Source of the DNA: Paraburkholderia solisilvae
GTDB taxonomy: Bacteria > Pseudomonadota > Gammaproteobacteria > Burkholderiales > Burkholderiaceae
NCBI RefSeq assembly: GCF_042682325.1
Contig: NZ_JBHUHI010000001.1
Coordinates: 3,523,622-3,563,621 of the forward strand
Length of the DNA stretch: 40,000 nucleotides
Reading direction: 5' to 3'
Shown: positions 7,310 through 36,051 of the stretch, piece after piece
How the letters are laid out: each line of letters starts with the position of its first letter
How positions within the stretch are numbered: the first letter of the stretch is position 1
Program-made: the position numbers and the translations under genes
The notes under the pieces: model-generated
What the model was told of the DNA's origin: nothing
Seen by the model: the letters and a program-made list of their open reading frames with translations, nothing else
Database searches by the model: none

Positions 7310-8092
7310 TCACGCGAAACCGTTGCCGGGTACCGAATGCAGCGAGAAGGCAAAATCGTATTCCAAGAGATGCACATTGCTCACGGCCGCTACGGCGTAT
7401 CTGAGGCTTTCAGAGATGGACGCCCCGATGATCACGCCGAAAACGGCGCGCCCTTGCGCGATATGCATTCGCACCCAGCCCATATATCGAAGAAGCTGAC
7501 TGAGCGCCTTGTCCGTTGCCGCACCACGCTTCAGTTCGATGACGTAAAGAGCGTCGTTTGCGATCGCTAAAATGTCGATTCGGCCAACGCCGGTCTGATA
7601 TTCAACGCCGCGTTTACCGTCGGCATTGAATAGTGCGAGTGGGCGCTTGTGCCCCGGCATTGTTGGCAGATTGTCGACTATGAAGTTGTTCAGCTGGCGT
7701 TCTATCGGAAATTCGGTGAGGTGGACAAGCGACGCGGGATGTGTCTCACCCGTGACACGCTCGAGCAGACGTAATGTTTTGGCGCGACAATCACCTGCCC
7801 ACTTCCCCGGAACGCTATCACCCAAGGCCTGCATGGCGGCGAAAACATGCCCGACGCCGCGAAGGTAGGTAGATGCTACGGATAACGAATCCTGGGCGTT
7901 CGCATCGTCTACCCAGTCTTGTAGCAATGCCAAAACGCAATGCAGGAGATTCTCACTGATTGCGGTCAGCGATTGAAACAGGTCGTCGTGTTCGGTTTCT
8001 CTGTATGCGTACTCGAAGCTTCCGAGCAGTTCAGAAATCCGTTCGGCGACAACGCGCAGGATCGCGCGGCTGTCTCGGCTAGCTTCGATCAT
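7310..8092 (-). CDS. NucS/DUF91-like PD-(D/E)xK nuclease-domain protein with an unassigned helical N-terminal domain
   Basis: C-terminus ERQLNNFIVDNLPTM...GVEYQTGVGRIDILAIANDALYVIELKRGAATDKALSQLLRYMGWV carries the D...ExK core and the QL-RY motif of NucS C-domain-like nucleases. The start is set at the first ATG (8092) downstream of the overlap with gene 8241..8522; the exact start is uncertain. Confidence 0.75.
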   Translation of the reverse strand: MIEASRDSRAILRVVAERISELLGSFEYAYRETEHDDLFQSLTAISENLLHCVLALLQDWVDDANAQDSLSVASTYLRGVGHVFAAMQALGDSVPGKWAGDCRAKTLRLLERVTGETHPASLVHLTEFPIERQLNNFIVDNLPTMPGHKRPLALFNADGKRGVEYQTGVGRIDILAIANDALYVIELKRGAATDKALSQLLRYMGWVRMHIAQGRAVFGVIIGASISESLRYAVAAVSNVHLLEYDFAFSLHSVPGNGFA

Positions 8093-8240
8093 CGACCGAA
8101 TATGTTCTAAGTCTTGTCCGCTGCCCAAACTGTTCCCCGTGCTGTTTTTGGTGGGGCGGCACAGTACCAGACGGGAAATCCCGTTCTTAATGCGGATCAG
8201 ACGCGAGTGATGGGATTGCGAAGACCGGACGCCACGCCGC

Positions 8241-8522
8241 TCAATCGCCTTCGAACGCGCTGAGCAGATCCGCCGGCAGCGGCGCGTCGAAGTCGTCCGC
8301 GACCTGGACTTGGCCGCGCAGCGCACCGCGCGTGCGTTCGGGCTTTGCAGGCGGCGCATCGACCCACATATCGATCTGGCGCGGATCGATGGCGGGTTCG
8401 TCAGGATCGACGCCACGCACCGCACGCTTGCGAGAGCCATCGGCAGGCTGCGCAACGGACACGCGCGGAAATATCTCGCGATTGAATATGGCGTCGGCCG
8501 TAATACGGACCAGTTCAGGCAT
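8241..8522 (-). CDS. Antitoxin-like protein (C-terminal DDFDAPLP..FEG motif), no cognate toxin adjacent
   Basis: GGAG lies 7 nt upstream of the ATG at 8522. The C-terminus RGALRGQVQVADDFDAPLPADLLSAFEGD resembles the tail of Phd/YefM- or VapB-type antitoxins. The N-terminus is atypical. Confidence 0.6.
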   Translation of the reverse strand: MPELVRITADAIFNREIFPRVSVAQPADGSRKRAVRGVDPDEPAIDPRQIDMWVDAPPAKPERTRGALRGQVQVADDFDAPLPADLLSAFEGD

Positions 8523-8604
8523 CTTCACTCCTGCACAGCATGGCGTGTCCTCACATTGCGGACTGCCACGTACGTTACTCGAAAGGCGACCGGGGCGGCA
8601 CTAC

Positions 8605-8708
8605 CCCGCGCAACAAACGACCGAAAGTTGCGCGATGCCAACAGGCCTTAAAAAGTGCGCAACAATCCCATTGCTATCGATGTTGCGCACCGGCATGATG
8701 TGCGCACG
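8605..8708. repeat. Cluster of GTGCGCAAC-type sites upstream of the serine recombinase (res/operator-like)
   Basis: gtgcgcaac (8655..8663) and its exact inverted copy gttgcgcac (8682..8690). Also the palindrome gtgcgcac (8700..8707), and related gttgcgcga (8628..8636) and cgcgcaac (~8607). Confidence 0.4.
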
Positions 8709-8730
8709 TTTGATGAGCACAAGGACCGCA

Positions 8731-9321
8731 ATGAGCCGCACTTTTCTTTACAGTCGTGTAAGCACCGCCACGCAGGACACCGCGAACCAGCTTCTCGAAG
8801 CCAAGAGCGCCGGATTCGACATCCCAGCATCGCGCGTCATTGCGGAAACCGTGTCTGGAACCGTGGCCGCGATGGAGCGCCCAGGGTTTCAGGCGTTGAT
8901 CGAGCACAAGCTCGAAGCGGGTGATGTTTTGATCGTGACCAAGCTGGACCGACTAGGCCGCAACACAAGCGACGTGCTCGCAACCGTTGAACGGCTGACC
9001 GCGATGGACGTGCGCCTGCATTGCATAGCTATCCCAGGGACCGACCTCACCAGTCCATCGGGACGCTTTACGCTTACTGTGTTGGCCGCAGTGGCGACAT
9101 TTGAACGCGACCTGCTGGTCGAACGAACACATGCGGGGTTGGCCCGTGCCCGCTCTGAAGGCCGCATAGGCGGTCGCAAAGAGTCGCTGACACCCGAGCA
9201 GAAAGCCGAGATACAGGCCGCAATGGCGCAGGGCAACGTGAGCGCCCGCGCGTTGGCGAAGCAATACGGCGTTGCACCCAACACGATCACCAAAGCCTGT
9301 CGAGAAACCGTGGCCGCGTAA
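8731..9321 (+). CDS. Serine recombinase (resolvase/invertase family)
   Basis: MSRTFLYSRVSTATQD (catalytic Ser), VTKLDRLGRN, VATFERDLLVERTHAGLARARSEGRIGGRK, and a C-terminal HTH. The start was moved to ATG 8731 (AAGGA upstream) from the longer track ORF. Confidence 0.92.
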   Translation: MSRTFLYSRVSTATQDTANQLLEAKSAGFDIPASRVIAETVSGTVAAMERPGFQALIEHKLEAGDVLIVTKLDRLGRNTSDVLATVERLTAMDVRLHCIAIPGTDLTSPSGRFTLTVLAAVATFERDLLVERTHAGLARARSEGRIGGRKESLTPEQKAEIQAAMAQGNVSARALAKQYGVAPNTITKACRETVAA

Positions 9322-9333
9322 CGCAACCGCCGA

Positions 9334-10056
9334 TCAGAGCGATTCCGGCTCTGCTGTTGAGGTAGGGGCGAGCAGGGCATCCGCGTTCAGGATCGGCGGC
9401 TGCTTACCCGGCACGCGATAGAAGTTGCAGACAACCACGCAACCGTTGAACTGCTCGTCGAGCCGCTTCAATTGCTGGTCCTGCTTTTCCTTGATTGCGC
9501 GGCCGAGCTTGAGCAGTCGGTCGGCCTCGGTGCTGTCGCTGGTCTGCGCCGCGGCGACGAGCTTGCTCTGGTGATATCGCAGCTCGATGTCGTGGTCCTT
9601 CAGCAGCTGGTCACGCTCACGCAAGTATTGCACGCCGAGCTCGCCCTTGCGCGTCGGTTTGCGCGTTGGCCGTGGCACGAACTGAACCGTCGTGTAGTCG
9701 TGCTCGAAGCCGGGACGCACGGGATCAGTGCCAGGAATACGGTATTCAGATGCGTACTCCGGCCCCGTGCGAGTCGATTCTGAGGCTTCACCGTCGTTTT
9801 TGGCGGCGCTGTGAAGATCGGGCGCGCGGCTCGAGCTCTGTGCACGCTTCTCCCCCTCCGCAACAACAGGCCCAAGCAAAGCGCGCCGCTGCGGATTAAT
9901 CGCTTTCTGCCACTTGTCGCGCTGCGATTTCTGCCACACGGCCGGTTTGGAAATGCCCCATTTCTTTGCGATATCTCCGTAGCTGACGTCTTCGTCACGC
10001 TCCCACTCATCGCGTGCCTGTTCCCATTGTTCTTCAGTGAGTTTTCGATTCGCCAT
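9334..10056 (-). CDS. HTH DNA-binding protein (240 aa), function unknown
   Basis: The N-terminus MANRKLTEEQWEQARDEWERDEDVSYGDIAKKWGISKPAVWQKSQRDKW is HTH-like. It is followed by a low-complexity linker and a coiled C-terminal part. Confidence 0.75.
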   Translation of the reverse strand: MANRKLTEEQWEQARDEWERDEDVSYGDIAKKWGISKPAVWQKSQRDKWQKAINPQRRALLGPVVAEGEKRAQSSSRAPDLHSAAKNDGEASESTRTGPEYASEYRIPGTDPVRPGFEHDYTTVQFVPRPTRKPTRKGELGVQYLRERDQLLKDHDIELRYHQSKLVAAAQTSDSTEADRLLKLGRAIKEKQDQQLKRLDEQFNGCVVVCNFYRVPGKQPPILNADALLAPTSTAEPESL

Positions 10057-10082: not shown

Positions 10083-10182
10083 CTTCACGTTAAGGTCACG
10101 ACGATGCATTTGATTCACGATGTAGACGCACCGCTTCACGCTTTGAGGGGGTGCAGTTCGTGTTCGGACTTCACGCGTGAAG
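10083..10182. repeat. Repeated (C)TTCACG hexamers ending in a 14-bp perfect palindrome, upstream of gene 9334..10056
   Basis: cttcacg at 10083 and 10134, ttcacg at 10114, gtcacg at ~10096, and the palindrome cttcacgcgtgaag at 10169..10182. Confidence 0.4.
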
Positions 10183-10248
10183 AGACGTTGCCGAAACGTC
10201 CATCAGATAAAGGCAAAGCTGTGTTTACGGCGCTTTCGAAAACACATC

Positions 10249-10272
10249 GCGGCGATGTATAACCGATGCTCC
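10249..10272 (+). repeat. 24-bp direct repeat, copy A
   Basis: gcggcgatgtataaccgatgctcc. It is 23/24 identical to 12604..12627, with weaker similarity continuing ~10 bp downstream. Confidence 0.6.
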
Positions 10273-10329
10273 TCACAGACAGCGGACAGCAGCGTGGCAC
10301 GGATTCCTGAAACCATGCGTTGCGGCCTT

Positions 10330-10710
10330 TTGGTCACGGCAGCGGCCGTCGACCGCCTCGCCGCAACGCGATGGACGTGCGTGCCACCGTCGACCTGCTC
10401 AACAAGATGGGAGGCGCGTTCGTTGCCTCGTGCTCAGTGGAGTCGACCTGACGAGTTCTGCCGGGAAGATGATGATGGGTGTGATATTGCAACCGTCGCC
10501 GAGTTCGAACGCGATCTGCTCATTGAGAGTACGCATGCCGGCCTCGCGCGCGCAAAGGCCGAAGGGAAGGACGCCGGTCAAAAGTCTAATGTGACCCGTG
10601 CGCACGCAAAGCGTAGAACCGGTTCAAACAAGGCGCAACCGTCTCTGGACTGACCACACACTTTCGACCACGTGGTGGGCCATCACCCGGATCCGAGAGC
10701 GCCTCGATTG
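10330..10710 (+). pseudogene. Serine recombinase pseudogene (N-terminally truncated, multiple frameshifts)
   Basis: Across three frames one reads: DRL(G)RNAMDVRATVDLLNKMG.., ..VDLTSSAGKMMMGV.., TVAEFERDLLIESTHAGLARAKAEGK, and an HTH remnant ..ITRIRER. The catalytic Ser region is absent. Confidence 0.75.
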
Positions 10711-10803
10711 CCATCGACTAGATGGTGTTGGAATTGATTCGCGACCGAATGTGCCAAGGGGAGGGGGTGTCCCTTGAGAAGGGTAACCTCCCCCAGCGGT
10801 ATC

Positions 10804-11169
10804 CTAATCGAGCAGGGTTACGAACGTGAGGTCGAAGTCCGCAGCGTATCGATCATCATTCGGCCGACGTTTGCCGCCATTCACGAATACGATGTGAGCC
10901 TTGCACTCTCGCCCGATGGCCCCAGAAATCAGATCGGAAAGTTTCGTCGTCAACGCATCGGATACAAACAGTTCCGCGTCCGGGACATCGCTGATAATCG
11001 TCATGCGCTTCTCGATCTGCAAACCTCTGCGATTGCGAGGAATGGTGCCGTCCTCAGCCTCCTCCTCGGCGACATCGAACGCCCTTTTAATACGCTCGAC
11101 TTCGACTTCGAAATCCGCCGGCACGACGACTTCGAATAGCATGGGAATATTGAGTGAAAGATTTTTCAT
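10804..11169 (-). CDS. Hypothetical protein (121 aa), downstream partner in a two-gene cassette
   Basis: Clean ORF 29 nt downstream of 11199..12410 on the same strand. No motif recognised. Confidence 0.7.
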   Translation of the reverse strand: MKNLSLNIPMLFEVVVPADFEVEVERIKRAFDVAEEEAEDGTIPRNRRGLQIEKRMTIISDVPDAELFVSDALTTKLSDLISGAIGRECKAHIVFVNGGKRRPNDDRYAADFDLTFVTLLD

Positions 11170-11198
11170 AAATTGCTTTCGTTGTCATCGCGCGCCGA

Positions 11199-12410
11199 TC
11201 AGCTGCGCAAGATCTCTACCGATTCGATGAAGGGATTTGAGAGCCGCGGCCTCAAAGGATCGTTCTTACCGTCTTGGACAAGTTCGAAGTCTGCTCGCCA
11301 GTCCACATTGAAATTATAGGGCGGCAGCTCAATCATTCGAAATGACCCGTACATTTGGTCGAGTTTAAGTTCGGACAAGCCGATGATCGGAGCCGTGTAG
11401 CTGAAAGACACGGGCTCGACCTTTGGCGTAGGAATATCGACATAGCTGGCCGAATACGGCATGCCTTCTTGCCATAGTGTCCCCGGGACGAGCTGCGGGT
11501 GAACGTCCGCGCTCGCAAAACCCAAAGCGTGTCCTGGTACCCACTCCCACCCGTCGCGCGAGATCGAATACGTATTGCGAAAATAGACGTGACGCATTTC
11601 CTTCTTCACGAATACCGGTGGGTTATACATTGAATGACGCAAACGTTCGTTGCTTATGCCCTCAAGCGTGGGCTGTAGGTCAATACGATGCTTCGCCATC
11701 GGGAATACATGCCCCCAGAATTCAGTGGCACCGTCCAAAAGTAATGCAGCGGCGTCGACTATCTGTGGCGCGATACTTGGATCAACATCGGAAGACAGGA
11801 AGTTCAGCTCGCTCGCCAGCTCGTCCGCGTTGCTTACGAATTTTGTATTCGGTGCCCGCGACTTTACGTGCTCGACGAGCCGTTTATCGTTGCTCACGAA
11901 CATCGCCGTCTCTGTACCGTGCGCCGGCAGAGTCCCCGCCATCTGAATGAATGTCTCGGCGATCACCGCGTCTTTGAATCCCTTTTCTTTGCTAGGGTCG
12001 GGATCGAACGGGGGCGCCCTTCGGCCCGCCGCCTTTATAAGGCTTGCCCAATTAACGGTGGAAGTGTCACACGGGACGACTTCGACGCCATGACGCGCCA
12101 ATTCATCGCTAACGAACCTGGCGATCTCACTGGTCATGGACTCCTCGGCTGCCAGCCATGTCGCGCCGAAGAGTTTCGGCATTTTTGACGCGACGCCGAA
12201 GATGTGCTTGATATTCGCCCGAAGCTGAACTTCGCGTTCCACTTGAACCATTTCCGGAATCGTCCACCGGATCTCAAGCTCCTCATGCTGAGGGTCGAGA
12301 ATGATCTTCGAGATGTTCGGCGGAATTAAATCTTCACCGCTCTCCTTCACCCACAGGGCATTGGCATCGAACATGATATGCAATTGGGATTTTTTCGTCG
12401 GAGCGTTCAT
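11199..12410 (-). CDS. PIN-like (DUF4935-like) N-terminal domain protein with an unassigned beta-rich C-terminal domain (403 aa)
   Basis: LHIMFDANALW ..., PPFDPDPSKEKGFKDAVIAETFIQ ..., and AMFVSNDKRL match, by my recollection, the acidic-residue pattern of PIN-like DUF4935 domains. The C-terminal ~200 aa have no recognisable motif. Confidence 0.8.
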   Translation of the reverse strand: MNAPTKKSQLHIMFDANALWVKESGEDLIPPNISKIILDPQHEELEIRWTIPEMVQVEREVQLRANIKHIFGVASKMPKLFGATWLAAEESMTSEIARFVSDELARHGVEVVPCDTSTVNWASLIKAAGRRAPPFDPDPSKEKGFKDAVIAETFIQMAGTLPAHGTETAMFVSNDKRLVEHVKSRAPNTKFVSNADELASELNFLSSDVDPSIAPQIVDAAALLLDGATEFWGHVFPMAKHRIDLQPTLEGISNERLRHSMYNPPVFVKKEMRHVYFRNTYSISRDGWEWVPGHALGFASADVHPQLVPGTLWQEGMPYSASYVDIPTPKVEPVSFSYTAPIIGLSELKLDQMYGSFRMIELPPYNFNVDWRADFELVQDGKNDPLRPRLSNPFIESVEILRS

Positions 12411-12603
12411 ATTGTTATTTCCTCCAGAATCTCAAAACACGTTGCGCCCGAATGGTACCTGAGAGGCTCGTCGCGCGCTCAATTGCGGGCGGTCTAGTAG
12501 CCGGAGGGCCGTTACGGGCAACGCGATGATCGGCTCGTTTCCGAACCGAACGCACACTCAAAAGATCGGGGGAAGCAGCGCGCTTTGACTTGTTATGGCC
12601 GTT

Positions 12604-12627
12604 GCGGCGATGTATAACCGCTGCTCC
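12604..12627 (+). repeat. 24-bp direct repeat, copy B
   Basis: gcggcgatgtataaccgctgctcc, in the same orientation as copy A. Confidence 0.6.
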
Positions 12628-12688
12628 CCAACAGCGCTTGACGTCCAATGCGCCACGCGCTGAGCTTCGCACCGACCAGGGAGTGAAT

Positions 12689-13525
12689 ATGACAGAAGCG
12701 TCTGAAGGAAAGGACAATCAACCGCTACTGCGCAGCGCCAGTGCCGTACAGGCCGATGCGTCGAAGGCGTGGCTCATCGACCAATTGCTTGAGCGGGGCA
12801 AACTTGGCGTGATCTACGGGCCACCGAAGTCGGGCCGCTCGTTCGTCGCGCTCGACCTGGCCGTCGCCGCAGCGAATGGAGAGCCGTGGTTCGGTCGCCA
12901 GGTCAAGCAGGTGCCCGTCACCTACGTCTGGAACGGCGATGCGAGCAGTTGCTCACGCCGGCTCGAGGCGCTGAGCAAGCGAGGTCGGCGCTTGCCCGAT
13001 ACCCTGCGAGTTTTCGGCGGCACCTTCAGTTGGGGATTTAAGCGCAACCTTTGGGATAGTGGCGACAAAGAACCGGAACCGCTGGTCCGGGAGATTAACG
13101 CAGCCAATGCGCGCGACGGGCTGATCGTGATCGATTCGGTCATGGAGACCTGGAAGGTGCTCAACGAAGTCCCGCATATCGTCGCCGAATGCGCGGCGCT
13201 GAGCGAGCAAACGGGCTGCGCTGTAGTCTTGGTCGATCAGTTCGGCACCGTGAGCAGCACAAACGGCACGCCACGCGAACTGTCCGGCATCCTCGGCTCG
13301 GTCGATTTCGCGGTACAGGTAGCGCCGTCGCAGTTCGGCGGCCGCGAATGGACCGTCACCGCCGCGCGCGAGGCAGCAAGCGGCGAGCGGCGCTCATTCG
13401 ACTTGGTGCCGGTCCAGATCAGCGAAAACAACTTCGGGCATCAATCAACGGCGTGCGTGGTTGAGGACCGTGGCGTAGATCGCGGGCTTGACGAGCTTCG
13501 CAGCGCAGGCCAATCAGAGAAGTGA
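12689..13525 (+). CDS. RecA-fold P-loop ATPase (AAA_25/RepA-like)
   Basis: GGGAG lies 6 nt upstream of ATG 12689. Walker A is GVIYGPPKSGRSFVALDLAVAAANGEPWFG, and the Walker B-like motif is GLIVIDSVMETW. Confidence 0.8.
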   Translation: MTEASEGKDNQPLLRSASAVQADASKAWLIDQLLERGKLGVIYGPPKSGRSFVALDLAVAAANGEPWFGRQVKQVPVTYVWNGDASSCSRRLEALSKRGRRLPDTLRVFGGTFSWGFKRNLWDSGDKEPEPLVREINAANARDGLIVIDSVMETWKVLNEVPHIVAECAALSEQTGCAVVLVDQFGTVSSTNGTPRELSGILGSVDFAVQVAPSQFGGREWTVTAAREAASGERRSFDLVPVQISENNFGHQSTACVVEDRGVDRGLDELRSAGQSEK

Positions 13526-13625
13526 ACCGGGGGCAACTGCCGTTGTAGCTCTCCCGGAAGCATCGCGACGATTTAAAGCAGCGCTCCCGCGCCGACGTGA
13601 ACTCAGCGTCGGCATTTCGACGCGA

Positions 13626-14261
13626 TCACCGCACCCCACGACGGCGAGAAACGCGGCGCCTGACCGGTCGTGCCGCAGGGGCGCTGGCGTTTGCCCGTTG
13701 ATCGGGATCGGCAGGGGCAGCCGTCGAGCCCGGGTCGACGATCCGGTCTTCGCGGAAGTCGATGACCGGCGCCCAGAAGCGCTGCCACCATGTGACTTTC
13801 GCGAGGAGATCGCGGGGATACCGTTCCGCGCGCAGCAGCTCGTTATGGCAGATGACGTTGAGCACGTGCAGCACGGGAGGTTCGTCGGCTTCGATCTCCA
13901 GCCGCGCGTCTGTCACGCGCAGCAAAACATCCTCGCTCGGAGCGCCGACCATCTGACGCTCCAAGCCGCTGTACTCGCGTGACAGATCGTGGTGAAGCCG
14001 AGCCCGCTGAGCTGACCCATAGACGAGATTGATCGCCGAAATAATGGTGACAAGCGCTGACGCGATCAGTGCGAGCGCATGATAGTCCTTGTCGAGCACG
14101 CCATAGATCGCAGCCGATCCGAAAATCAGCGAAATGACGTTCCCCCACTGGTCACAGCGGTCAAAGAACGCGCGCCTACGCTGATGGTATCGGATCGAGC
14201 GGCGGATACCGAAAAGCATGTCCGCCCAGCGACGGTCGAGCGGCCTATCGGTATCGGTCAC
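13626..14261 (-). CDS. Two-TM membrane protein, SLATT-like (inference)
   Basis: N-terminal amphipathic IRRSIRYHQRRRAFFDR, then two hydrophobic helices (WGNVISLIFGSAAIYGVL and ALALIASALVTIISAINLVYG), then a helical tail. GTG start overlaps the upstream stop (GTGA). Confidence 0.7.
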   Translation of the reverse strand: MTDTDRPLDRRWADMLFGIRRSIRYHQRRRAFFDRCDQWGNVISLIFGSAAIYGVLDKDYHALALIASALVTIISAINLVYGSAQRARLHHDLSREYSGLERQMVGAPSEDVLLRVTDARLEIEADEPPVLHVLNVICHNELLRAERYPRDLLAKVTWWQRFWAPVIDFREDRIVDPGSTAAPADPDQRANASAPAARPVRRRVSRRRGVR

Positions 14262-16159: not shown

Positions 16160-16303
16160 ATGGACCACGATCAGATTTTGTTCACGCTCGAGGAACTGGC
16201 GTTCGAAGCGTTCGTCGCCGAACTGGATCCACCGCAGCCGCAGCGCAATGCTGGCCTCGAGCGTCTGATGGCCGTGCAGGCACCGTGGGACGTCGATGAA
16301 TGA
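16160..16303 (+). pseudogene. DUF1778 (TacA-type antitoxin) C-terminal remnant, 47 codons
   Basis: ILFTLEELAFEAFVAELDPPQPQRNAGLERLMAVQAPWD matches the C-terminal half of DUF1778 antitoxins. There is no RHH N-terminus and no GNAT toxin downstream. Confidence 0.5.
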
Positions 16304-16572
16304 ACTGCCGTACGACGAGCACGTCGAGCGCACGCACTACCATAGCCTGCGTCGGCTGATCGATGCGGAGCGCAGGACGTAGCCTAGCTGGCGTTGTCCG
16401 ACCGCTCCAATTCCTTGTCCGGACCAACCTGATACGCCCTGCGCTTGGCATCAGCGAGAATGCGTGGCCACACGGCCATGATATCGATCTGCGGCACCGC
16501 TAAAACCGACTGCTCGCCGTCATCAAACGGCGCGTCGATTACCGCCGTATCCGCGTTTTCTTGTTCGTGCAT
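16292..16572. repeat. Diverged direct repeat R1 (paralogous to 19713..20118)
   Basis: Alignable by eye at roughly 75-80% identity with R2. It carries an internal deletion of roughly 130 nt relative to R2. Confidence 0.7.
16384..16572 (-). CDS. Small acidic hypothetical protein (62 aa) inside repeat R1
   Basis: GGAGA lies 5 nt upstream of ATG 16572. Sequence MHEQENADTAVIDAPFDDGEQSVLAVPQIDIMAVWPRILADAKRR... The R2 counterpart has lost its start and carries a stop. Confidence 0.45.
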   Translation of the reverse strand: MHEQENADTAVIDAPFDDGEQSVLAVPQIDIMAVWPRILADAKRRAYQVGPDKELERSDNAS

Positions 16573-16636
16573 TTCGTCTCCGGGACGTTGGGAATTGACG
16601 CAGAGAATCACGTCACGAACTCATAGACCCAAACGC

Positions 16637-17170
16637 ATGAAAAACACAAAACCATTCGACGCTGCGAAATACCTGACCGACGACGAGACAATCCGCCATT
16701 ACCTCGCTGAGGCCTTCGAGAGCAGCGTCCCCGCGATTGCCCGGACCGCGCTGCACGACGTCGCACGGGCAAAGGGCGTGCAGGACGTGGCGCGCGATGC
16801 CGGCATGACACGCAAGGCGTTCGAACAAGCGCTGGCCGACGAGCATGTCGGCTATCTGACCATCCGCCGAATCGTCGAAGCGCTGGGGTTTTCGCTAACC
16901 ACAGTGCCGGCCGAATCGCCAGTTTTCCGGCGAATCATGGCCGCACGCTACAAGCGGTCGACTAGGCGTCTGCACGTCGAATTCTTGCTCGGCGTCGAGT
17001 ACATGATCCCGGTCGGACATATCGAGAAGCTGACTGCACTGGAGCCGACGGCCTCCGACCTGAAGCACGTCGAGGTGTCCAAGCGCGGTCGCTGCATCCG
17101 CTTTCCCAAGCTCGGCGTGAAAATTCGCGTGCCCGACATCAAGCGGGCGGCCATGGGGGCGTTCAGCTGA
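16637..17170 (+). CDS. Fusion of an addiction-module antidote HTH domain (TIGR02684-like) and a DUF2442-like domain
   Basis: KPFDAAKYLTDDETIRHYLAEAFES...ALHDVARAKGVQDVARDAGMTRKAFEQAL...IRRIVEALGFSLTTVP matches the antidote family. The C-terminus LHVEFLLGVEYMIPVGHIEKLTALEPTASDLKHVEVSKRGRCIRFPKLGVKIRVPDI is DUF2442-like. Confidence 0.8.
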   Translation: MKNTKPFDAAKYLTDDETIRHYLAEAFESSVPAIARTALHDVARAKGVQDVARDAGMTRKAFEQALADEHVGYLTIRRIVEALGFSLTTVPAESPVFRRIMAARYKRSTRRLHVEFLLGVEYMIPVGHIEKLTALEPTASDLKHVEVSKRGRCIRFPKLGVKIRVPDIKRAAMGAFS

Positions 17171-18009
17171 TGAACCCAACCAGCGACTACCGGCTGGATC
17201 TGAACAAAGACGACTTCGCAGAAGCCGTCCGGCTACTGTCACGCATGCATCCGTCCGACGTGAACGGCCGCTTGTTGTTCGTCTTCCGGCGCGGTTGGTT
17301 GGAACTCAAGCGTACCACCCCGATGGGCATAGCACAGGCTCAAACGTCGATCTACGCGAGTGGATGGTGGCAAGGCCTCGTAAGCGTCGACTGGAAAGAC
17401 GCGCTAAGCGTGCTCGATGACCTGTGGTTTCTCGACCCGTTCTATCTGACGTTCTCGCAACAATCGAACGTGTTCGCATTCGGCAGTCGCGTCGTCCGTG
17501 GCCGGGGCGGTGCCACACAGCAGCAATTGAAGTTCGACGCACCCGCGAACACCGATGCTCGGGTGCAGCCAGAAGCAGAGCCAGTCACGCTGCTAGACGA
17601 ACTGCTCGCCCGAATTGCACGGATTGACGTAGGGAACGCTGGGAAGCCTCCGGTGAAGATGAGCGAGATCGCCGAGCGGTACGAGCGCGATGCGGAGCTT
17701 GTGCGGCTGCTGAAGGATGCGCGAGGGGGAAAGTGCCAGGTGTGCGGGCATACCTTCAGAATGCGCAACGGCGGCACGTACACGGAAGCGCATCATCTCG
17801 AAGAACTGGTGAATGGTGGCCTCGACGTGTCGCGCAACATGCTGATCGTCTGCGCGAATCATCACCGCATGTTCCACTACGGCGACGTCGAGATCATCGA
17901 GCACACCGCCGAGCAGATCATAGTGCGGATCGACGACGAAACACATACGATCCCGCTCGCGTTCGTTCCGCCGCCAAAGCAAGCGTCAGCGGAAGCGCTG
18001 GCGCCATGA
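17170..18009 (+). CDS. HNH endonuclease-domain protein with an unassigned N-terminal domain (279 aa)
   Basis: CQVCGHTFRMRNGGTYTEAHHLEELVNGGLDVSRNMLIVCANHHRMFHYG (CxxC ... HH ... N ... CxxHH). Its start overlaps the upstream stop (TGATG at 17168..17172). Confidence 0.85.
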   Translation: MNPTSDYRLDLNKDDFAEAVRLLSRMHPSDVNGRLLFVFRRGWLELKRTTPMGIAQAQTSIYASGWWQGLVSVDWKDALSVLDDLWFLDPFYLTFSQQSNVFAFGSRVVRGRGGATQQQLKFDAPANTDARVQPEAEPVTLLDELLARIARIDVGNAGKPPVKMSEIAERYERDAELVRLLKDARGGKCQVCGHTFRMRNGGTYTEAHHLEELVNGGLDVSRNMLIVCANHHRMFHYGDVEIIEHTAEQIIVRIDDETHTIPLAFVPPPKQASAEALAP

Positions 18010-19109: not shown

Positions 19110-19622
19110 CTACTCGGTCGTGTCATTGAGCAAGTCCGGTTTTCCCTCAAGGATTTCGCGCGCCCATGGCTGCATCAAAAACGGGAATCCGTTAAGTGTG
19201 CCAACCTGCGACGCCCGAAGAAGTATGCCTTTTGCTTCAAGCCCCCGCGCGACGCCGTCGCTGATCGAGTACGACACCGACGATTTTCGATCCCGGATGT
19301 ACGGGCGCAAGCGCTTCTTTTCGTCGGGCTCCAGCCGCTCCATCTTCCTGCGTTGACTGCGGCTGGTCATACCAGTCAATATCGCTATCCCGATCCAGTC
19401 GTGGATTTCGCCGATCAGGTGCGCGAGTAGAAAAGCGCATGACGCGACGAATAGCGCACCAATCCATGATCGGTACGTTTGAACGAACGCCGTCGTGCCC
19501 ACGGTTGCCTGGATCGTCGCCGGCGCGAACAGCAGGAACGCGCTCGCTGCCGCAATGCCGATCAACGGCTTAACGGCAAACTCGGCGAACGCTTTTATGC
19601 CCTCCAGCACTTCTTTTAGCAT
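19110..19622 (-). CDS. Two-TM protein, superinfection-exclusion SieB-like (inference)
   Basis: GGGGAGAAG lies upstream of ATG 19622. Two TM helices (LIGIAAASAFLLFAPATI, WIGALFVASCAFLLAHLIG), then LEPDEKKRLRPYIRDR...GVARGLEAKGILLR...FLMQPWA. This layout resembles the SieB family as I recall it. Confidence 0.7.
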   Translation of the reverse strand: MLKEVLEGIKAFAEFAVKPLIGIAAASAFLLFAPATIQATVGTTAFVQTYRSWIGALFVASCAFLLAHLIGEIHDWIGIAILTGMTSRSQRRKMERLEPDEKKRLRPYIRDRKSSVSYSISDGVARGLEAKGILLRASQVGTLNGFPFLMQPWAREILEGKPDLLNDTTE

Positions 19623-19712
19623 GTCTCTTCTCCCCGTCTGGACCGGCGTATTCTGCCACTGTGCGGACCGGGTAGGCGACGCGTTCAAAACCGGGGCGTC
19701 TATGTAAAATTC

Positions 19713-20118
19713 ATCGCATGAACGAACTGCTGTACGACGAACACATCGAGCGCACGCGCCATGCGATCATGAAGCGCATCGAACAGGCGCGCGAGCATTC
19801 ACCAAGCAGCCCGCAGCACGAAGCGTATCTCCGTACCGCCGGGACGATCCTGACCGGCCTGACCCGCAACTTCGAGGTCGCCGACGAGGACTACGATAGC
19901 CTGCGTCGGCGGATCGATGCGGAGCGCGGGACGTAGCCTATCCGGCGTTGTCCGACTGCTCCAGTTCGCTGTCTAGAGCAGCCTGACATACCCGGCGTCT
20001 CGCACCTGCCATGAGGAGTGGCCAGACGGCCAAGAGATCAACCTGCGGCGTCGTTGAAGCCGACTACTCAAACGGCGCATCGAGCACCGCTGTATCCGTG
20101 TTTTCGTGATCCTGCCAT
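19713..20118. repeat. Diverged direct repeat R2 (paralogous to 16292..16572)
   Basis: See R1. It contains the intact 72-aa plus-strand ORF and a degraded copy of the minus-strand small ORF (19938..20117; start lost, TAG after ..DAPFE). Confidence 0.7.
19718..19936 (+). CDS. Small hypothetical protein (72 aa) inside repeat R2
   Basis: MNELLYDEHIERTRHAIMKRIEQ...DYDSLRRRIDAERGT. The R1 counterpart (16296..16382, MNELPYDEHVERTHYHSLRRLIDAERRT) lacks the central part. Confidence 0.45.
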   Translation: MNELLYDEHIERTRHAIMKRIEQAREHSPSSPQHEAYLRTAGTILTGLTRNFEVADEDYDSLRRRIDAERGT

Positions 20119-20137: not shown

Positions 20138-22390
20138 TTATGACGTACTGACCGGCGCCGGGCTGTCCTGCGGTGGGCTGTTGCGGATTGTATCCATGCC
20201 CTTTTCGAATTCCCGCGTGGCTTCAGTTTCCACTTCATCGAGTATTCGACCGGAAGCGATCTCACGCAGGCGTGCGGATAGTTGCTCGAGATTCGTTGGA
20301 GGAAGAAGATAAGGCTCGAAAAGTTTTGGATCAACCGAGGCGATGCGATGCGTGACCCGCTCTCCGTATGTGTAGGACGTCCCGACTCGTACGGCCTTGA
20401 CGAGCAATTTCAACAGCACTTCGTCGTCGTCCATGGCGCGTTGGAACCATTGCTGGATTTCTGCTATGTCAGCCCAATTACTCCATACCAGCAGCGCGAG
20501 GTAAACATCGGGCAGTTGAATTAGGCCGTCACCCCGCGCTATTTTACGCAACCGGGCAGTCACAATGTCTCTCAATTGTTCCACCGTCGCAGGCGCAAAG
20601 GCTTGGAAGGCCGAATCACGTTGCGCAGCGTCCGCCTGATACATCCGGTCAATGCTATACGCGATTCTGCATGCTAATCCGATGGCTTCGCCTTCCCGGA
20701 TTAGTCTCAGAATTGTTGTTTCGCGTTGGTTGTCGGGCAACGCCTTTGCAAGGTGATTGATGAGCCAGAAGGCGTGTACGTCCGCGTGAACACTGAAAAA
20801 TCCGGGTACCGAATTACGTGGGTCACTCAAAAACCCGTCTCCCACGCGGAAAAATGCTTCCATGCATGCGGCTGCAAATGGGACCGGTAGGTCGTCGAGC
20901 TTTGTCAGTGCTGTGATCAAGTCGTTGGCTTTGCAAGGCCCGGAAGGTCGGCGCTCGTCGAACGCCACGACCCAAGCGTCAGCCAGCGCATCAACATTTT
21001 CCCCAAGGCGGATAAAGGCGCGTAACTCCTGCTCGCTCAACACGTCGGGGGAAACTCCGAACTGGAAATATCTATCGAACTTTTCGGACACGCAAACTCG
21101 GGCTTGTGCGCTCCAGCGACGCAGCGAGTCGGTGCCGTACGTAACATTTCCCCATACCCACTGCAGGCGTGGGAAAAGGCGTTTCATTAATGCTTTAACC
21201 GGCGCTCGATGTCTGGCAGACAGGGTTTCCAACCATCCGTCGTGGAACTGCTGAGCTTCCACGCGCTCCCCTCGGTCAGGCGCAAGACCGGTGAATTTGG
21301 CTTTGTTATCGCGGATCACTGCGTATGCGGCCGGAACAAATACACGTAGGAACTCGAGGGCAATGAAATCCACAGGATTCACCTCACCCCGTACCGCGGG
21401 AAACGTAACCATAAGTGCGTTCACTGCCCGAACCACATCGCGGGGAGTCTGGACTAGCGGCGATAGTCCATCATGAAAGACATTGCTCCAATGTGTCGTA
21501 TCGACCGCAATCTCATCGTTCCCGAGCGTACCAATGAGGCGATCAAGGTCGCGCAGAAGCTTCTGGATGAGGAACTCGTCCGAAACCGCGGGCAAGACGA
21601 ACTGCGCCTGTACAATTTTTTCGAGGTATGCATCGCCATCTGCAATTGCGAGCGAAGTCCGTAACGCTTCGGAGACAAGACGGCGGTCGAAAGCCAATAT
21701 GTATACAACGTTCGGGAAATCCGCGACGGCTTTGATCACCTTGAAGACTTCGCGTATTTCATACGGTGCAAGCCTATCGATGTCATCGACGAACACTACA
21801 AATCGCTGTGCCGCCTTCTCCAAAGCGTCGGACACTTCCGCCTTCAGTTTTCGAACGTCTTTGGGCGTTCGCTTGAACCTCTTAAGCAGCCCTGACGCAA
21901 ACGTTCCAAGCAACGGAATCGGAGCTCCCGTGGCAGCAGAAATGCTTGTTGCTACGGCAGAGCCGATCGCATCGGCATATTCAGCAAACGCGTCGGCGAC
22001 GGCCATCAGTGTTTTGTTTTCTTGCGGGAAGCGTGCACGAAACTGCTCTAGAAACTGCAACGTCAGTTGCTCACGGTCCGCAAACCACCACGGATTGAAC
22101 TCTACGCTCACGGGAAGCACTAATTCGTTTTTGACGACAGCTACATTCTGATCCAGCAGATAATGCCGCACGAAATTGAGTAAGCTCGTCTTCCCGGCGC
22201 CCCATGGCCCATCTATCGCCATTACGAGGCCCTTTGGACTCGGGGTCGTCGCGGCGGCTCGAGCAATAGTACGGGCGAAAGGGGCATAGCCGAACTCGTC
22301 AAAGGACGGATGCGCTTGCGGCGCGTCGCTGCCCAATGGGCTCTCGATTACGGGCTCAACGGCGGATGTTCTCTGGTTTTCGCCTGCCAT
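20138..22390 (-). CDS. KAP family P-loop NTPase (750 aa)
   Basis: DEFGYAPFARTIARAA...LVMAIDGPWGAGKTSLLNFVRHYL (Walker A) and RFVVFVDDIDRL (Walker B). The size and helical C-terminal region are typical of KAP NTPases. Confidence 0.95.
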   Translation of the reverse strand: MAGENQRTSAVEPVIESPLGSDAPQAHPSFDEFGYAPFARTIARAAATTPSPKGLVMAIDGPWGAGKTSLLNFVRHYLLDQNVAVVKNELVLPVSVEFNPWWFADREQLTLQFLEQFRARFPQENKTLMAVADAFAEYADAIGSAVATSISAATGAPIPLLGTFASGLLKRFKRTPKDVRKLKAEVSDALEKAAQRFVVFVDDIDRLAPYEIREVFKVIKAVADFPNVVYILAFDRRLVSEALRTSLAIADGDAYLEKIVQAQFVLPAVSDEFLIQKLLRDLDRLIGTLGNDEIAVDTTHWSNVFHDGLSPLVQTPRDVVRAVNALMVTFPAVRGEVNPVDFIALEFLRVFVPAAYAVIRDNKAKFTGLAPDRGERVEAQQFHDGWLETLSARHRAPVKALMKRLFPRLQWVWGNVTYGTDSLRRWSAQARVCVSEKFDRYFQFGVSPDVLSEQELRAFIRLGENVDALADAWVVAFDERRPSGPCKANDLITALTKLDDLPVPFAAACMEAFFRVGDGFLSDPRNSVPGFFSVHADVHAFWLINHLAKALPDNQRETTILRLIREGEAIGLACRIAYSIDRMYQADAAQRDSAFQAFAPATVEQLRDIVTARLRKIARGDGLIQLPDVYLALLVWSNWADIAEIQQWFQRAMDDDEVLLKLLVKAVRVGTSYTYGERVTHRIASVDPKLFEPYLLPPTNLEQLSARLREIASGRILDEVETEATREFEKGMDTIRNSPPQDSPAPVSTS

Positions 22391-26773: not shown

Positions 26774-28030
26774 ATGCTCACCGACGCTGCACTACGCAAT
26801 CTGAAGCCTAAGTCCAAGATTTATAAGGCTTCTGACCGGGACGGGATGTACGTGACGGTATCGACCAGCGGTACCGTCACCTTCCGCTACGATTACCGTC
26901 TCAATGGTCGCCGCGAAACGCTGACCCTCGGGCGCTATGGCCCTGACGGTATTTCGCTGGCGATGGCGCGTGAACTACTTATAGACGCACGCAAAGCCCT
27001 TCTCAAAGGCATCTCGCCCGCGCTTGAAAAGCAGCGCGAGAAACGCCGCGTGACCGACATCAAGACCTTCGGCGCGGCGATGGGCACATTTTTGGCTCAT
27101 GCCCGATGGGCCGACAGCACCCGCGCTGCACGCAAGCACATCATTGACCGGGACATCCTGCCGGTTTTCCGCAATCGCCTGCTGACCGAAATCCAGCCTG
27201 ACGACCTGCGGACTTTGTGTAGCAAGGTCAAGGAGCGTGGGGCACCGGCTACGGCGGTGCAGATTCGGGACATCGTGAAGCAGGTCTACGTCTACGCCAT
27301 CGCTCACGGGGAAAAGGTGGACAACCCCGCCGACAGCGTGGGGCCATCCACGATCGCTACCTTCGTGCCGAAGGATCGCGCCTTGTCGCCGTTGGAAATC
27401 CGGCTGATGGTGCAGCAGATGGAATCGGTGGCGACCTATCCGACCATCAAGCTAGCGTTGCGCCTGATCCTGCTGACGCTGGTACGCAAAAGCGAATTGA
27501 TTCAGGCCACGTGGGATGAGGTCGATTTCGAGAACAAGACCTGGACAATTCCTAAGCAGCGGATGAAAGGGCGTAATCCGCATGTGGTCTATCTGTCGCG
27601 CCAGGCGCTCGACATTTTCGTGACGCTGCACGCTTGCGCGGCCGGCTCAAGGTTTGTTTTCCCATCTCGTTACGATGCACACCGGTACATGTCCAATGCA
27701 ACCTTGAATCGGGTCACAGGACTCGTGGCAGAGGCCGCACAAGCCAAGGGGCTGCCGCTGCAATCGTTCACCGTCCATGATCTGCGCCGTACCGGCTCGA
27801 CGCTGTTGAACGAAATCGGCTTCAACCGTGACTGGATCGAGAAGTGTCTGGCGCACGAGGAGGGACGTTCTTCCCGTGCGGTTTATAACAAGGCCGAGTA
27901 CGGCGAGCAGCGGCGCCACATGCTGCAAGAGTGGGCCAACATGGTCGGGGCTTGGGGCGAAGGGCAGGCCTATGTGCCGAAGCTGATGCCGGAGAACATA
28001 GTCGTGCCAGCGTTGAGTGCGACGGTTTGA
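26774..28030 (+). CDS. int: Tyrosine integrase, P4-like with a DUF4102 N-terminal arm-binding domain
   Basis: GGAGGA lies 7 nt upstream. MLTDAALRNLKPKSKIYKASDRDGMYVTVSTSGTVTFRYDYRLNGRRETLTLGRY, and the catalytic region FTVHDLRRTGSTLL ... IEKCLAHEEGRSSRAVYNKAEY. Confidence 0.95.
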   Translation: MLTDAALRNLKPKSKIYKASDRDGMYVTVSTSGTVTFRYDYRLNGRRETLTLGRYGPDGISLAMARELLIDARKALLKGISPALEKQREKRRVTDIKTFGAAMGTFLAHARWADSTRAARKHIIDRDILPVFRNRLLTEIQPDDLRTLCSKVKERGAPATAVQIRDIVKQVYVYAIAHGEKVDNPADSVGPSTIATFVPKDRALSPLEIRLMVQQMESVATYPTIKLALRLILLTLVRKSELIQATWDEVDFENKTWTIPKQRMKGRNPHVVYLSRQALDIFVTLHACAAGSRFVFPSRYDAHRYMSNATLNRVTGLVAEAAQAKGLPLQSFTVHDLRRTGSTLLNEIGFNRDWIEKCLAHEEGRSSRAVYNKAEYGEQRRHMLQEWANMVGAWGEGQAYVPKLMPENIVVPALSATV

Positions 28031-29392: not shown

Positions 29393-29518
29393 GAGCACGC
29401 TGCATGGAGACATTGTGAAGTTCAGCACCTATCGAGACAACTTGCTGCGGCGTAGCGCAGCGAATTCGGGGGAGGTCGATGTCCACCAGTCTCTGCCTTC
29501 CGATCTCAACATCGAACT

Positions 29519-31315: not shown

Positions 31316-31317
31316 GA

Positions 31318-33459: not shown

Positions 33460-33894
33460 GTAGGGCCCCGGTTTGGACGAGGCAAGTTCGATGCTGGATT
33501 GCCTCCTTAAATTCCGATCATGTTACAAGGTGTCGCTCGATTCTGGTGCAGGAACTATCGGGCGAGAGATGAGCGTGCTGTTGTGTTGCTTTGCGCGTCT
33601 CTGCGTTCCGCCGTCGGGTTCGCGGACTGTCCCCGCGCCTCCCGCTGAGCCGCGGTCATTTGGCTTTGCTCCCTGACGTCTCCGGCTCTTGCAGGCCCGC
33701 ACGCTCCGCTTGCCGGCGCGGATAGCAGAGAGGAGGGGGGGGCTTGCTGTTTCCTTCGCCGTATCACGGCATACTCGCCGTCAAGGGCTGCGCGTGCGAG
33801 CACGCTGGCAGCCCGTGGCTGACCCGTGACGGCTTGCGTTGCGCCGTGCTGGCGACGGTTCCGGGCAATTCCGCCCGTGCAACCGGAGATCGCC

Positions 33895-34025
33895 ATGAGC
33901 GTACTCATCACTTGACGAACAACGATTCCTGATGCTGGCCAATGGCCGTAAATCACTCCAGACTCCGGACTTTAATCCGGTGCCCGTGGTCATGTTGTTC
34001 ACGCCGGACGCCGGCGCGAGCTGGC
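33895..34025 (+). pseudogene. DUF2958 (ICE-associated) gene remnant, frameshifted and 3'-truncated
   Basis: MSVLIT (frame 1), then after a 1-nt shift LDEQRFLMLANGRKSLQTPDFNPVPVVMLFTPDAGASWLL. Similarity to the family ends where the AT-rich DNA begins. Confidence 0.6.
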
Positions 34026-34093
34026 TGCTGCACGAGAAGCTGCGTCATGTTCTTTGCCGATCGCTGCTTGGCTTGAGAGCCTCAATTGCCAAG

Positions 34094-35341: not shown

Positions 35342-35438
35342 ATTTCTATCCTCAACTAACCGTATGCCAAATAATAAGCGACGGAACCTTGGGCGTCTCC
35401 ACTTCGTGGATCGCGCTGCTCTAGGTTCGCTGTCTGCT

Positions 35439-36051
35439 CATCCCTGGCGGAACTGGCGTTCGCCAGCCTTCCACATCCGCCGCGACCTGTTCGCCGAAGG
35501 CGATGCCGGAACCTACCTGACCGATGCCGCGCTGCTGGAAACGCTGGTGCGCGGCAAGCTGGATGCGCAGGCCGAGGACGTGCGCGCCGAGGGCTGGGCG
35601 TGGGTGGAAGCCGTACCGCACATGAGCCACGCCGACCGCCAGACGTTCCAGAACGCGCCGCGCCAGCGCCGCGAACCGAACGTCCGCGAAGCCCGCCGCA
35701 TCGCGTCCCTGCAAACCCGCCTCGACAAGCTCGATGCCGAACTCGAAGAAGCCTACGACGCCGAGAACGAGGACAAGACCGAGGCGCTGGAACCGCGCCG
35801 CGAGCAGGTGGTCGAGGAACTGCAAGCCATCGAGGAAGGCTTGCGTGACTACGCCCCGGACGTGCGCGCCGTGGCCGGTGCCATCGTCACGCTCGACCGC
35901 GAAGGCGAGGCCGTGATTCATCGCGGTCTGCTGCGCGAGGCCGAGGCCAAGGCACTGCGGACGCTGGAAAAGCTGCGGCAGGGTTTCGGCGCAGGCGATG
36001 GCGCGAACGACGAGGAAGGCCACGACGACGAAGCGCCCAAGGCCGCAAGCC
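35439..36051 (+). pseudogene. ICE-type ParB-like protein, internal fragment
   Basis: HPWRNWRSPAFHIRRDLFAEGDAGTYLTDAALLETLVRGKLDAQAEDVRAEGWAWVEAVP...REPNVREARRIASLQ...IVTLDREGEAVIHRGLLREAEAKALRTLEKLRQGFG. It lacks both the ParB N-domain and the C-terminal half. Confidence 0.7.

Follow-up and report, generated by a model that had tools for sequence, protein, structure and literature searches.

The 40,000-nucleotide (nt) stretch of Paraburkholderia solisilvae DNA analyzed here, referred to as the window, is a mobile-element-rich, defense-rich region in which two copies of a short direct repeat bracket a degraded serine-recombinase (resolvase) gene and a pair of minus-strand genes with a 29-nt spacer, an arrangement that was described in an original prediction for this DNA and that we confirm. 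With a confidence a little above even, we take the segment at 10249–12675 to be a mosaic insertion of ~2.4 kb in the upstream region of an AAA_25 ATPase gene, and the PIN_12 protein encoded in it to be a stand-alone defense cargo. The segment and its borders are composed as follows.

10172..10248, plus strand: left flank of the proposed insertion site, conserved in the metagenome contig L013
10249..10275, plus strand: left repeat copy, 6 nt followed by an ATG at 10255 and the codons M-Y-N-R-C-S-S
10255..10653, plus strand: serine-recombinase pseudogene with a Y-x-R-x-S-S motif, a ~40-codon internal deletion, at least two frameshifts and a decayed C-terminal helix-turn-helix (HTH)
10804..11169, minus strand: gene for a 121-amino-acid (aa) protein of a rare orphan family, 29 nt downstream of the PIN_12 gene
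11199..12410, minus strand: gene for a 403-aa PIN_12/DUF4935 protein, 32.4 bits on PF16289 against a cut-off of 32
12411..12603, no strand assigned: inner right arm of the insert, at once the PIN_12 upstream region and the 5′ neighbor of the right repeat, with no relation to the left flank
12604..12630, plus strand: right repeat copy, with an ATG at 12610
12610..12663, plus strand: apparent resolvase 5′ end stub of 17 codons (MYNRCSPTALDVQCATR, from translation) and then a stop, just before the AAA_25 gene
12634..12675, plus strand: 42-nt stretch that follows the right repeat and precedes the ribosome-binding site of AAA_25, absent from L013
12689..13525, plus strand: gene for an AAA_25 (RecA-family, RepA-like) ATPase (Pfam AAA_25, 79.7 bits), right neighbor of the insertion

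The 24-mer GCGGCGATGTATAACCG(A/C)TGCTCC is present in exactly two copies in the window, at 10249–10272 and 12604–12627, both on the plus strand and identical at 23 of 24 positions, as had been predicted, and 100 dinucleotide-preserving shuffles gave 0 matches. The identity extends beyond the 24-mer, to 27 nt without gaps (25/27) and to ~33–36 nt with one 3-nt indel; past this core, the sequences flanking the two copies (120 nt per side) are no more similar to each other than shuffled sequences (p = 0.27 on the left and p = 0.18 on the right). The dyad symmetry ascribed to the repeat (GCGGCG-N9-CGCTGC) did not hold up, with 5/6 complementary positions in the right copy and 4/6 in the left copy, which by our own estimate is approximately the level expected by chance for a 24-mer. 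In the collections scanned, the 24-mer is not a common genomic repeat. Specifically, a collection of 185,579 species with one genome each (~600 Gb) contained one match only, inside a Ruegeria cytochrome c gene, and by our estimate chance alone would give about this many matches to 20 specified bases; none was found in the metagenome and viral collections; and blastn against plasmids gave chance matches only, including an intergenic match in Ralstonia that was dismissed after checking. Of note, these scans covered the relevant organisms poorly, as the window and L013 themselves were not recovered in the genome, metagenome and viral scans, and the genome collection appears to lack the source genome.

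A feature that was missed in the original prediction is that the repeat appears to be the 5′ end of a resolvase coding sequence. The reference for this assignment is an intact paralogue of the decayed gene, located 0.9 kb leftward of the left repeat.

8731..9321, plus strand: intact small serine recombinase (resolvase) of 196 aa, Pfam Resolvase 121.7 bits plus HTH_7, with the start MSRTFLYSRVST read from the translation

The translation of the left repeat, M-Y-N-R-C-S-S-Q-T-A-D-S-S (MYNRCSSQTADSS), aligns to L-Y-S-R-V-S-T-A-T-Q-D-T-A (LYSRVSTATQDTA), the N-terminal catalytic-serine motif of the intact resolvase, with a score of 30 (p = 0.002 vs. shuffles). The LLVT..DRL remnant shares its reading frame with the ATG at 10255, and the pattern Y.R.S[ST] has 4 occurrences in the six-frame translation of the window, including those in the intact resolvase and the left repeat. 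The remnant scores 22.8 bits on Pfam Resolvase, and over 37 aa its FERDLL...AGLARAKAEGK segment shares 62% identity with the intact paralogue. From this alignment and the reading frame, we consider it most likely that the decayed resolvase gene started in the left repeat, which would then not be a free-standing site. At the DNA level, no similarity to the core was found in the 5′ end of the intact paralogue (≤3 mismatches allowed), and no functional cognate recombinase was found inside the element, the internal resolvase being a pseudogene.

The insertion reading is supported by a second version of the same locus. L013 is a 963-nt metagenome contig from the Joint Genome Institute (JGI) that encodes P0018, the closest relative of the AAA_25 protein (93% aa identity). 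Bases 1–100 of L013 match window positions 10172–10270, i.e. the left flank and the left repeat, with 84% identity, and bases 103–963 match window positions 12676–13539 with 93% identity. L013 contains a single core (CGCGACGATGTATAACCGATGCTTCCCAA), which reads as a 5-codon stub, and GGAGTGAATATG, comprising the ribosome-binding site and start codon of the AAA_25 gene, comes directly after it. On its left side, this core matches the left copy in the window (A at the variable position) while the next six bases match the right copy (TCCCAA vs. CCCCAA), and such a mixed core is the product expected from an exchange inside the core. Judged from these alignments, L013 looks like the empty site of the element, with one copy of the core in this short contig, which also differs by a 42-nt indel, and direct repeats flanking the insert in the window. 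The guanine-plus-cytosine (GC) content of the segment, which at 53–55% is lower than in both flanks (59–64% in the surroundings), agrees with this, and together with the single-core junction it supports the suggestion that the cassette could be inserted or excised as a unit, in the direction of insertion. A second empty site was not found in L012, the only longer contig with a related AAA_25 gene, as it shares just that gene with the window. Plasmid searches with the 6-kb region and both proteins found nothing.

A contig carrying a relative of the 121-aa gene, L008, provides a candidate for the form in which the insert arrived. L008 is related to the window in the small gene (81% nt identity) and in the resolvase lineage (71% nt identity between the two remnants), and its resolvase also lacks the first 66 residues. 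L008 and the window differ in gene order by a circular permutation; read in reverse, L008 has small <- GIY-YIG <- | -> resolvase, while the order in the window is resolvase -> small <- PIN_12 <-. Joining the window segment at its two repeats reproduces the L008 order, which fits a circular intermediate [small <- PIN_12 <- | -> resolvase] fusing with a resident stub. The layout of a nuclease gene divergent from a resolvase gene thereby occurs three times, at 7310–9321 in the window, in the PIN_12 donor unit deduced here, and in L008, where a second resolvase gene lies beyond the small gene, on its other side.

From these observations, we propose the following sequence of events. The resident site would already have carried a short resolvase 5′ stub fused ahead of the AAA_25 gene, and the donor would have been a circularized unit with the order [small gene <- PIN_12 gene <- | intergenic | -> resolvase]. 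The donor may then have recombined with the stub through the 27–36 bp of common resolvase 5′ sequence, in which case a single crossover would have left a copy of the shared core at either end of the insert. Either RecA-type homologous recombination or a resolvase could have made this crossover, and the evidence favors neither. Decay of the incoming resolvase would afterwards have fixed the cassette in place.

The mosaic structure of the segment extends to the two minus-strand genes. The small gene is homologous at the DNA level to L006 and L008 over ~10771–11185 only, a block that reaches ~20 nt 5′ of its start codon and 33 nt 3′ of its stop codon. Because the homology ends ~20 nt ahead of the small-gene start, the junction with the PIN_12 gene is a recombination joint. 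The two genes do not travel together. At five independent loci of the close subfamily (P0002, P0003, P0004, P0005, and P0007; 35–43% identity), neither gene calls nor tblastn revealed the small gene (0/5), although the P0004 locus (L009) has just 200 nt of sequence 3′ of the PIN_12 gene; 80 further metagenomic PIN_12 loci (25–44% identity) were also negative by tblastn and phmmer (0/80); and none of the five other small-gene loci has a PIN_12 gene (0/5). Enough downstream DNA for a comparison was available at 48 of the 80 loci, and these have no downstream partner family in common save for a 67-aa CxxC open reading frame (ORF) in three. Elsewhere, the small gene lies 107–509 nt from its neighbors or is divergent from them, and DUF4935 genes have been reported to be mostly monocistronic (PMC5499597). 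On these gene neighborhoods, the small gene is neither a conserved nor an obligate partner of the PIN_12 gene, and the original prediction that the pair forms a two-gene module of a PIN protein and its partner, resembling toxin–antitoxin (TA) or abortive-infection systems, is not borne out. Instead, the 121-aa gene would be an independently mobile orphan that recombination has placed beside the PIN_12 gene, with which it is probably co-transcribed here. We note that the 67-aa ORF, found in L042, L044, and L085, is conserved, contains two CxxC pairs (zinc-ribbon-like), and starts 7–15 nt after the PIN_12 stop codon.

The functional cargo is most likely the 403-aa protein acting alone as a Mg2+-dependent PIN-type nuclease effector with an anti-phage or anti-mobile-element function. 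This protein, the gene of which has the ribosome-binding site GGAGGAAA 5′ of the ATG at 12410, matches, at 100% identity, a protein annotated as 'PIN domain-containing protein' on a 4.5-Mb Paraburkholderia solisilvae contig. It is a member of PIN_12: its match to PF16289 spans residues 42–176 and profile positions 28–170 of 172, its homologues P0003, P0009, and P0011 score 37–44 bits over the whole profile, and all 12 clusters of homologues recovered in a word-indexed search, mostly from Burkholderiaceae or soil metagenomes, have a precomputed PF16289 assignment. In an alignment of 10 sequences (23–44% identity), D15, D147, and D175 are invariant and E58 and E152 nearly so. An AlphaFold2 model (predicted local distance difference test score, pLDDT, 77.5) has an N-terminal PIN-like domain (~1–206), a helical linker, and a C-terminal beta-sheet domain, the long strands of which are broken by a disordered insert of ~55 residues (298–352). 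The acidic residues map to the C-termini of strands 1, 3, and 4 and to the beginning of the helix that succeeds strand 2. The topology, in which strand 2 leads into a helical insert and strand 3 into two helices, agrees with that published for DUF4935. Thus, the predicted N-terminal PIN-like (DUF4935-like) domain was borne out by the profile match, the conserved acidic residues, and the modeled topology. With regard to the fold, the AlphaFold2 topology is that of a PIN-like protein, and Foldseek matches are weak (E ≥ 0.05 for PIN domains), with a best E-value overall of 5e-3 and low template modeling (TM) scores. The C-terminal part gave weak Foldseek matches in the PDB to folds of the BPI, SPLUNC1, and juvenile-hormone-binding-protein type, and a profile search of PDB sequences with the 403-aa family found nothing. 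We suggest that the C-terminal beta-sheet domain would be the regulatory or sensing part of the effector.

We also observed that in L004, L005, and L009 the homologues P0003 and P0004 lie 0.5–5 kb downstream of a 350-aa gene of the Phage_portal family, and that the homologue in L005 also adjoins an integrase fragment, which suggests that close homologues of the 403-aa protein are carried on prophage remnants or satellites.

A defense role for the 403-aa protein is suggested by its family together with the island context. Matelska et al. 2017 (PMC5499597) described PF16289 as a VapC-like group among PIN-domain-like proteins, and the 403-aa protein resembles its members in length (~350–400 aa), in the N-terminal PIN-like domain with conserved acidic residues, in a C-terminal alpha/beta region (~180–200 aa) with no known homologue, and in that its relatives are mostly solitary genes. 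It differs in belonging to a divergent and rare subfamily (32–44 bits on the model) with the ~55-residue disordered C-terminal insert, and in being followed after 29 nt by a second gene. The original prediction recognized no named system here; yet one PIN_12 protein, Cosus (Brc24), has already been demonstrated to be a single-gene anti-phage defense, as a mobile-integron cassette with a PIN12 domain that confers complete T7 resistance, and this resistance is greatly reduced by the substitutions T12A, D14A, and D96A (bioRxiv 10.1101/2024.07.02.601719). A Cosus sequence that we stitched together scores 101 bits on PF16289 over the whole profile. Similar to Cosus (~380 aa), the 403-aa protein has a PIN_12 domain, a beta-rich C-terminal half, and the motifs hhhD(T/A)N at the N-terminus, PF..K.K..F.DA, and VS(Q/N)DK, and it is a mobile cargo among other defense genes. 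The Cosus mutagenesis primers encode ..GKDKKNEFPDAIA.. and ..VSQDKGW.., corresponding to ..SKEKGFKDAVIA.. and ..VSNDKRL.. in the 403-aa protein, and the conserved Asp positions are also those to which the Cosus mutations point. Unlike Cosus, the 403-aa gene has no integron or attC context, and for Cosus no neighboring small gene has been described as needed. A tblastn comparison of Cosus with the 403-aa protein, limited by the machine-read sequence, gave no match. The 403-aa protein shares its Pfam family with Cosus, a distant relative, and probably also the mode of action reported for it; it would be a candidate for a narrower 'Cosus family'.

The 121-aa protein is borne out as a protein with no recognizable motif: it has no match in Pfam, PADLOC, PHROGs, or NCBIfam; Foldseek against the PDB and BFVD found nothing at E<1e-3; and a sequence profile search of the PDB found nothing. 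We prefer the 121-aa start over the annotated 112-aa start, as the first nine residues are conserved in homologues. The gene has its own purine-rich ribosome-binding site and encodes an acidic protein (isoelectric point, pI, 4.7), for which the AlphaFold2 model (pLDDT 86) has the order beta-alpha-beta-alpha-beta-beta with no HTH, ribbon-helix-helix, or AbrB element. The family is very small, with 5 clusters at 90% identity and 3 representatives at 50% among 1.84 billion. Its members have diverse neighbors. In L008, a GIY-YIG/PDC-S14-like gene lies 291 nt upstream; in L007, there is a divergent PIN_4 gene and a downstream NucC-like (PD-DExK) DUF6602 gene; in L006, a 210-aa gene of unassigned function lies 509 nt upstream and an HNH gene is nearby; in L014 and L015, there is a divergent 344-aa gene together with a tyrosine integrase gene; and L016 is a short contig. 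A hairpin after the small gene was considered as an intrinsic terminator and rejected (z-score −0.88, no T-tract). The top Foldseek matches of the 121-aa model in both libraries are mostly phage head–tail connector, neck, and tail-terminator proteins, and also YajQ; with E-values of 7e-3 to 0.6 and TM-scores of ≤0.36, these matches are too weak to interpret, although they are consistent between the PDB and BFVD.

Several observations weigh against our interpretation of the segment and its cargo. No circular form was observed, action of a recombinase on the core is hypothetical, and the genome, metagenome, and viral scans gave no second locus in which the core is used with other cargo. The empty site is known from a single short contig of a diverged relative, and because the 42 nt at 12634–12675 are missing from it, at least one extra indel is needed to relate the two versions. 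The identification of the repeat with a resolvase start depends on a short motif alignment and a reading frame, and Pfam Resolvase had no match to the MYNRCSS start, in a test in which the intact N-terminus, used as a positive control, reached only E = 0.016. As for the cargo, the PIN_12 match of the 403-aa protein is at the threshold of the model, and the PIN domains among its Foldseek matches in the PDB, which align with its N-terminal part, are weak hits (HARP 8ssg, E = 0.05; Rrp44 5k36_K, E = 0.12). No model of PADLOC-DB v2.0.0 matches the 403-aa or the 121-aa protein at E ≤ 0.01, unlike the neighbors PifA, GajA, and GajB, which match strongly. The Cosus sequence was assembled from a machine-read cassette sequence in a supplementary PDF and contains frameshifts, and the subfamily hidden Markov model matches it just at PF..K.K..F.DA (E = 0.004, 2.4 bits, in a search of one sequence). 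Lastly, the 29-nt spacing and same orientation are compatible with a locally evolved functional link of the two proteins.

The last of these points is shared with a reading that we regard as very improbable, in which the 403-aa and 121-aa proteins are a dedicated two-component TA or abortive-infection module, the small protein neutralizing or regulating the nuclease, and the module moves by site-specific recombination at the 24-mer. The two genes are indeed on the same strand and closely spaced, the small gene has a ribosome-binding site of its own, and its product is acidic and confidently predicted to fold; moreover, small-gene homologues elsewhere are beside nuclease-type genes (GIY-YIG, PIN_4, and NucC-like PD-DExK), and the setting is a defense island. 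However, the pair occurs only here (0/5 close and 0/80 distant PIN_12 loci and 0/5 other small-gene loci), the junction between its genes is a recombination joint, the small gene is elsewhere distant or divergent from its neighbors, and DUF4935 genes are mostly monocistronic, with Cosus functioning as a single gene. Among known TA systems, VapBC (type II) modules offer a parallel, as they likewise combine, on a mobile element, a PIN-fold nuclease with a small acidic protein next to it. Compared with a VapBC toxin, the 403-aa nuclease has three times the size and one domain more; the small gene is downstream and its product has no predicted DNA-binding fold, whereas VapBC has an upstream gene for a DNA-binding antitoxin. 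A VapBC-type TA was rejected for the large two-domain nuclease, the downstream small gene, and the non-conservation of the pair. Type III TA or another known RNA is not indicated either, with no tandem repeats of >3 units and no Rfam match.

Two further readings concern how the segment came about. In one, which we consider unlikely, there is a true site-specific system in which the first ~27 bp of the resolvase gene are or overlap the crossover site, and circles of the type [defense cargo <- | -> resolvase] fuse into other copies, like integron cassettes. This would account for repeats at resolvase gene starts, for an empty site with a stub, and for three units with the same architecture (PDC-S02/resolvase, the PIN_12 donor, and the GIY-YIG unit of L008), and an intact paralogous resolvase is encoded close by. 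It is also reminiscent of Campbell-type islets with attL/attR and of resolvase cointegrates with directly repeated res sites, where direct repeats flank foreign DNA, an empty site has a single copy, and the recombinase gene abuts one repeat. Here, however, the place of a tRNA end or an upstream res site is taken by what appears to be the 5′ coding end of the recombinase gene itself, the recombinase inside the element is no longer functional, and a second use of the site was not found in the scans. Known resolvase res sites are ~100 bp long, have several subsites, lie upstream of the gene, and favor intramolecular resolution, which counts against this reading, as do the lack of a further core copy in ~600 Gb of genomes, in metagenomes, and in viral collections, the dissimilarity in DNA between the 5′ end of the intact paralogue and the core, and the chance-level dyad symmetry of the core. 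In addition, 27–36 bp of identity suffice for rare RecA-dependent crossovers, so that a dedicated enzyme is unnecessary. An extended version, in which the first ~27 bp of this resolvase lineage are a working crossover site, units of the form [defense gene(s) <- | -> resolvase] circulate as serine-recombinase cassettes that fuse into stubs and assemble islands, and the 121-aa protein is a portable accessory to nucleases (PIN_12, GIY-YIG, PIN_4, and NucC-like), strikes us as rather improbable. In the other reading, to which we also give little credence, the occupied state is ancestral, L013 is a deletion derivative, the repeats are the remains of two tandem paralogous resolvase genes, and nothing was inserted. 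In its favor, precise excision cannot have produced L013, which lacks the 42 nt that a clean repeat–repeat recombination would keep; both copies of the resolvase gene show degradation; and rearrangement scars abound in the island (among them an IS3-family transposase gene and the direct repeats at 16296 and 19718). Yet the L013 junction falls exactly in the repeat, with the left part from the left copy and the next six bases from the right copy; the 23/24 identity, which includes the 6 nt upstream of the ATG and is set in unrelated flanks, argues for a recent common origin of the two cores and not for old paralogy; and the GC content of the segment is lower than that of both flanks.

The analysis assigns a likely stand-alone defense nuclease to a divergent Burkholderiaceae branch of PIN_12/DUF4935, a family in which Cosus is the only member tested so far. 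The 403-aa protein is a divergent addition, in a mosaic cassette, to a family with a validated single-gene defense member. The case also carries a caution for genome scans, as tight spacing within a repeat-flanked segment does not make two genes a system. Moreover, it suggests, from this single case, that resolvase gene stubs may serve as landing pads through which new cargo is stitched into defense islands; if general, this would help to account for the growth of such islands. Besides these possible landing pads, the rare 121-aa protein that recurs beside different nucleases remains of interest.

The insertion lies in an island with other defense and mobility genes. To its left, the neighbor is an ORF with an N-terminal DNA-binding region, which has weak PHROGs matches to terminase small subunit (E = 2e-4) and to a DNA-binding domain (E = 4e-3).

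9334..10056, minus strand: 240-aa ORF, left neighbor of the insertion, no Pfam match, N-terminal DNA-binding region resembling a small terminase subunit

Farther left, a NucS-like PD-(D/E)XK nuclease gene (7310–8455) matches the PADLOC candidate PDC-S02 (88 bits) and is divergent from the intact resolvase gene, giving the layout 'nuclease <- | -> resolvase'. To the right, the AAA_25 gene is adjoined by a gene (13626–14261) for a 211-aa SLATT-like protein with two transmembrane segments, which has a strong match to phrog_11791 (217 bits) and weak ones to SLATT domains and the PADLOC '2TM effector' model, and which may function as a membrane effector. These genes are followed by an antitoxin-like gene (PF21716, dnstrm_HI1420) and an HNH nuclease gene (16445–18009), SieB (19110–19688), and PifA (20138–22390; 388 bits). 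A complete Gabija pair, GajA (31318–33459; 1049 bits) and GajB (29519–31315; 891 bits), is in a low-GC block (29500–35350; 42–52% GC) together with unassigned ORFs at 33555–33956 and 34094–35341, and this block has a sharp boundary with a ~70% GC stretch (35500–37500) that overlaps the start of the TrbI conjugation gene (36866–38242). The window also contains genes for the IS3-family transposase, a DnaB helicase, the intact resolvase, a tyrosine integrase (26774–28030), and TrbI.

Two minor observations concern other rearranged loci. A more distant homologue of the 121-aa protein, P0021, is encoded in L014 (1122–6360; GCA_031454815.1, JAVDRN010000001.1), divergent from the unannotated 344-aa gene, of which a 63-residue remnant of the N-terminal region is also present beside the small gene in L008; the L014 locus adjoins a gene triad of Peptidase_C14 (caspase-like), Y4kD_C, and metallo-beta-lactamase as well as the tyrosine integrase gene, at the edge of a mobilizable island. 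Within the window, a direct repeat of ~220 nt at 16296–16515 and 19718–20069 (40 nt at 90% and 180 nt at 79% identity) encloses a 3.4-kb segment with the antitoxin-like gene (PF21716), the HNH nuclease gene, and SieB. The copy at 19718 opens a 72-aa ORF (MNELLYDEHIERT...) and the copy at 16296 looks truncated, and this repeat pair may represent a second cassette-like duplication in the island.

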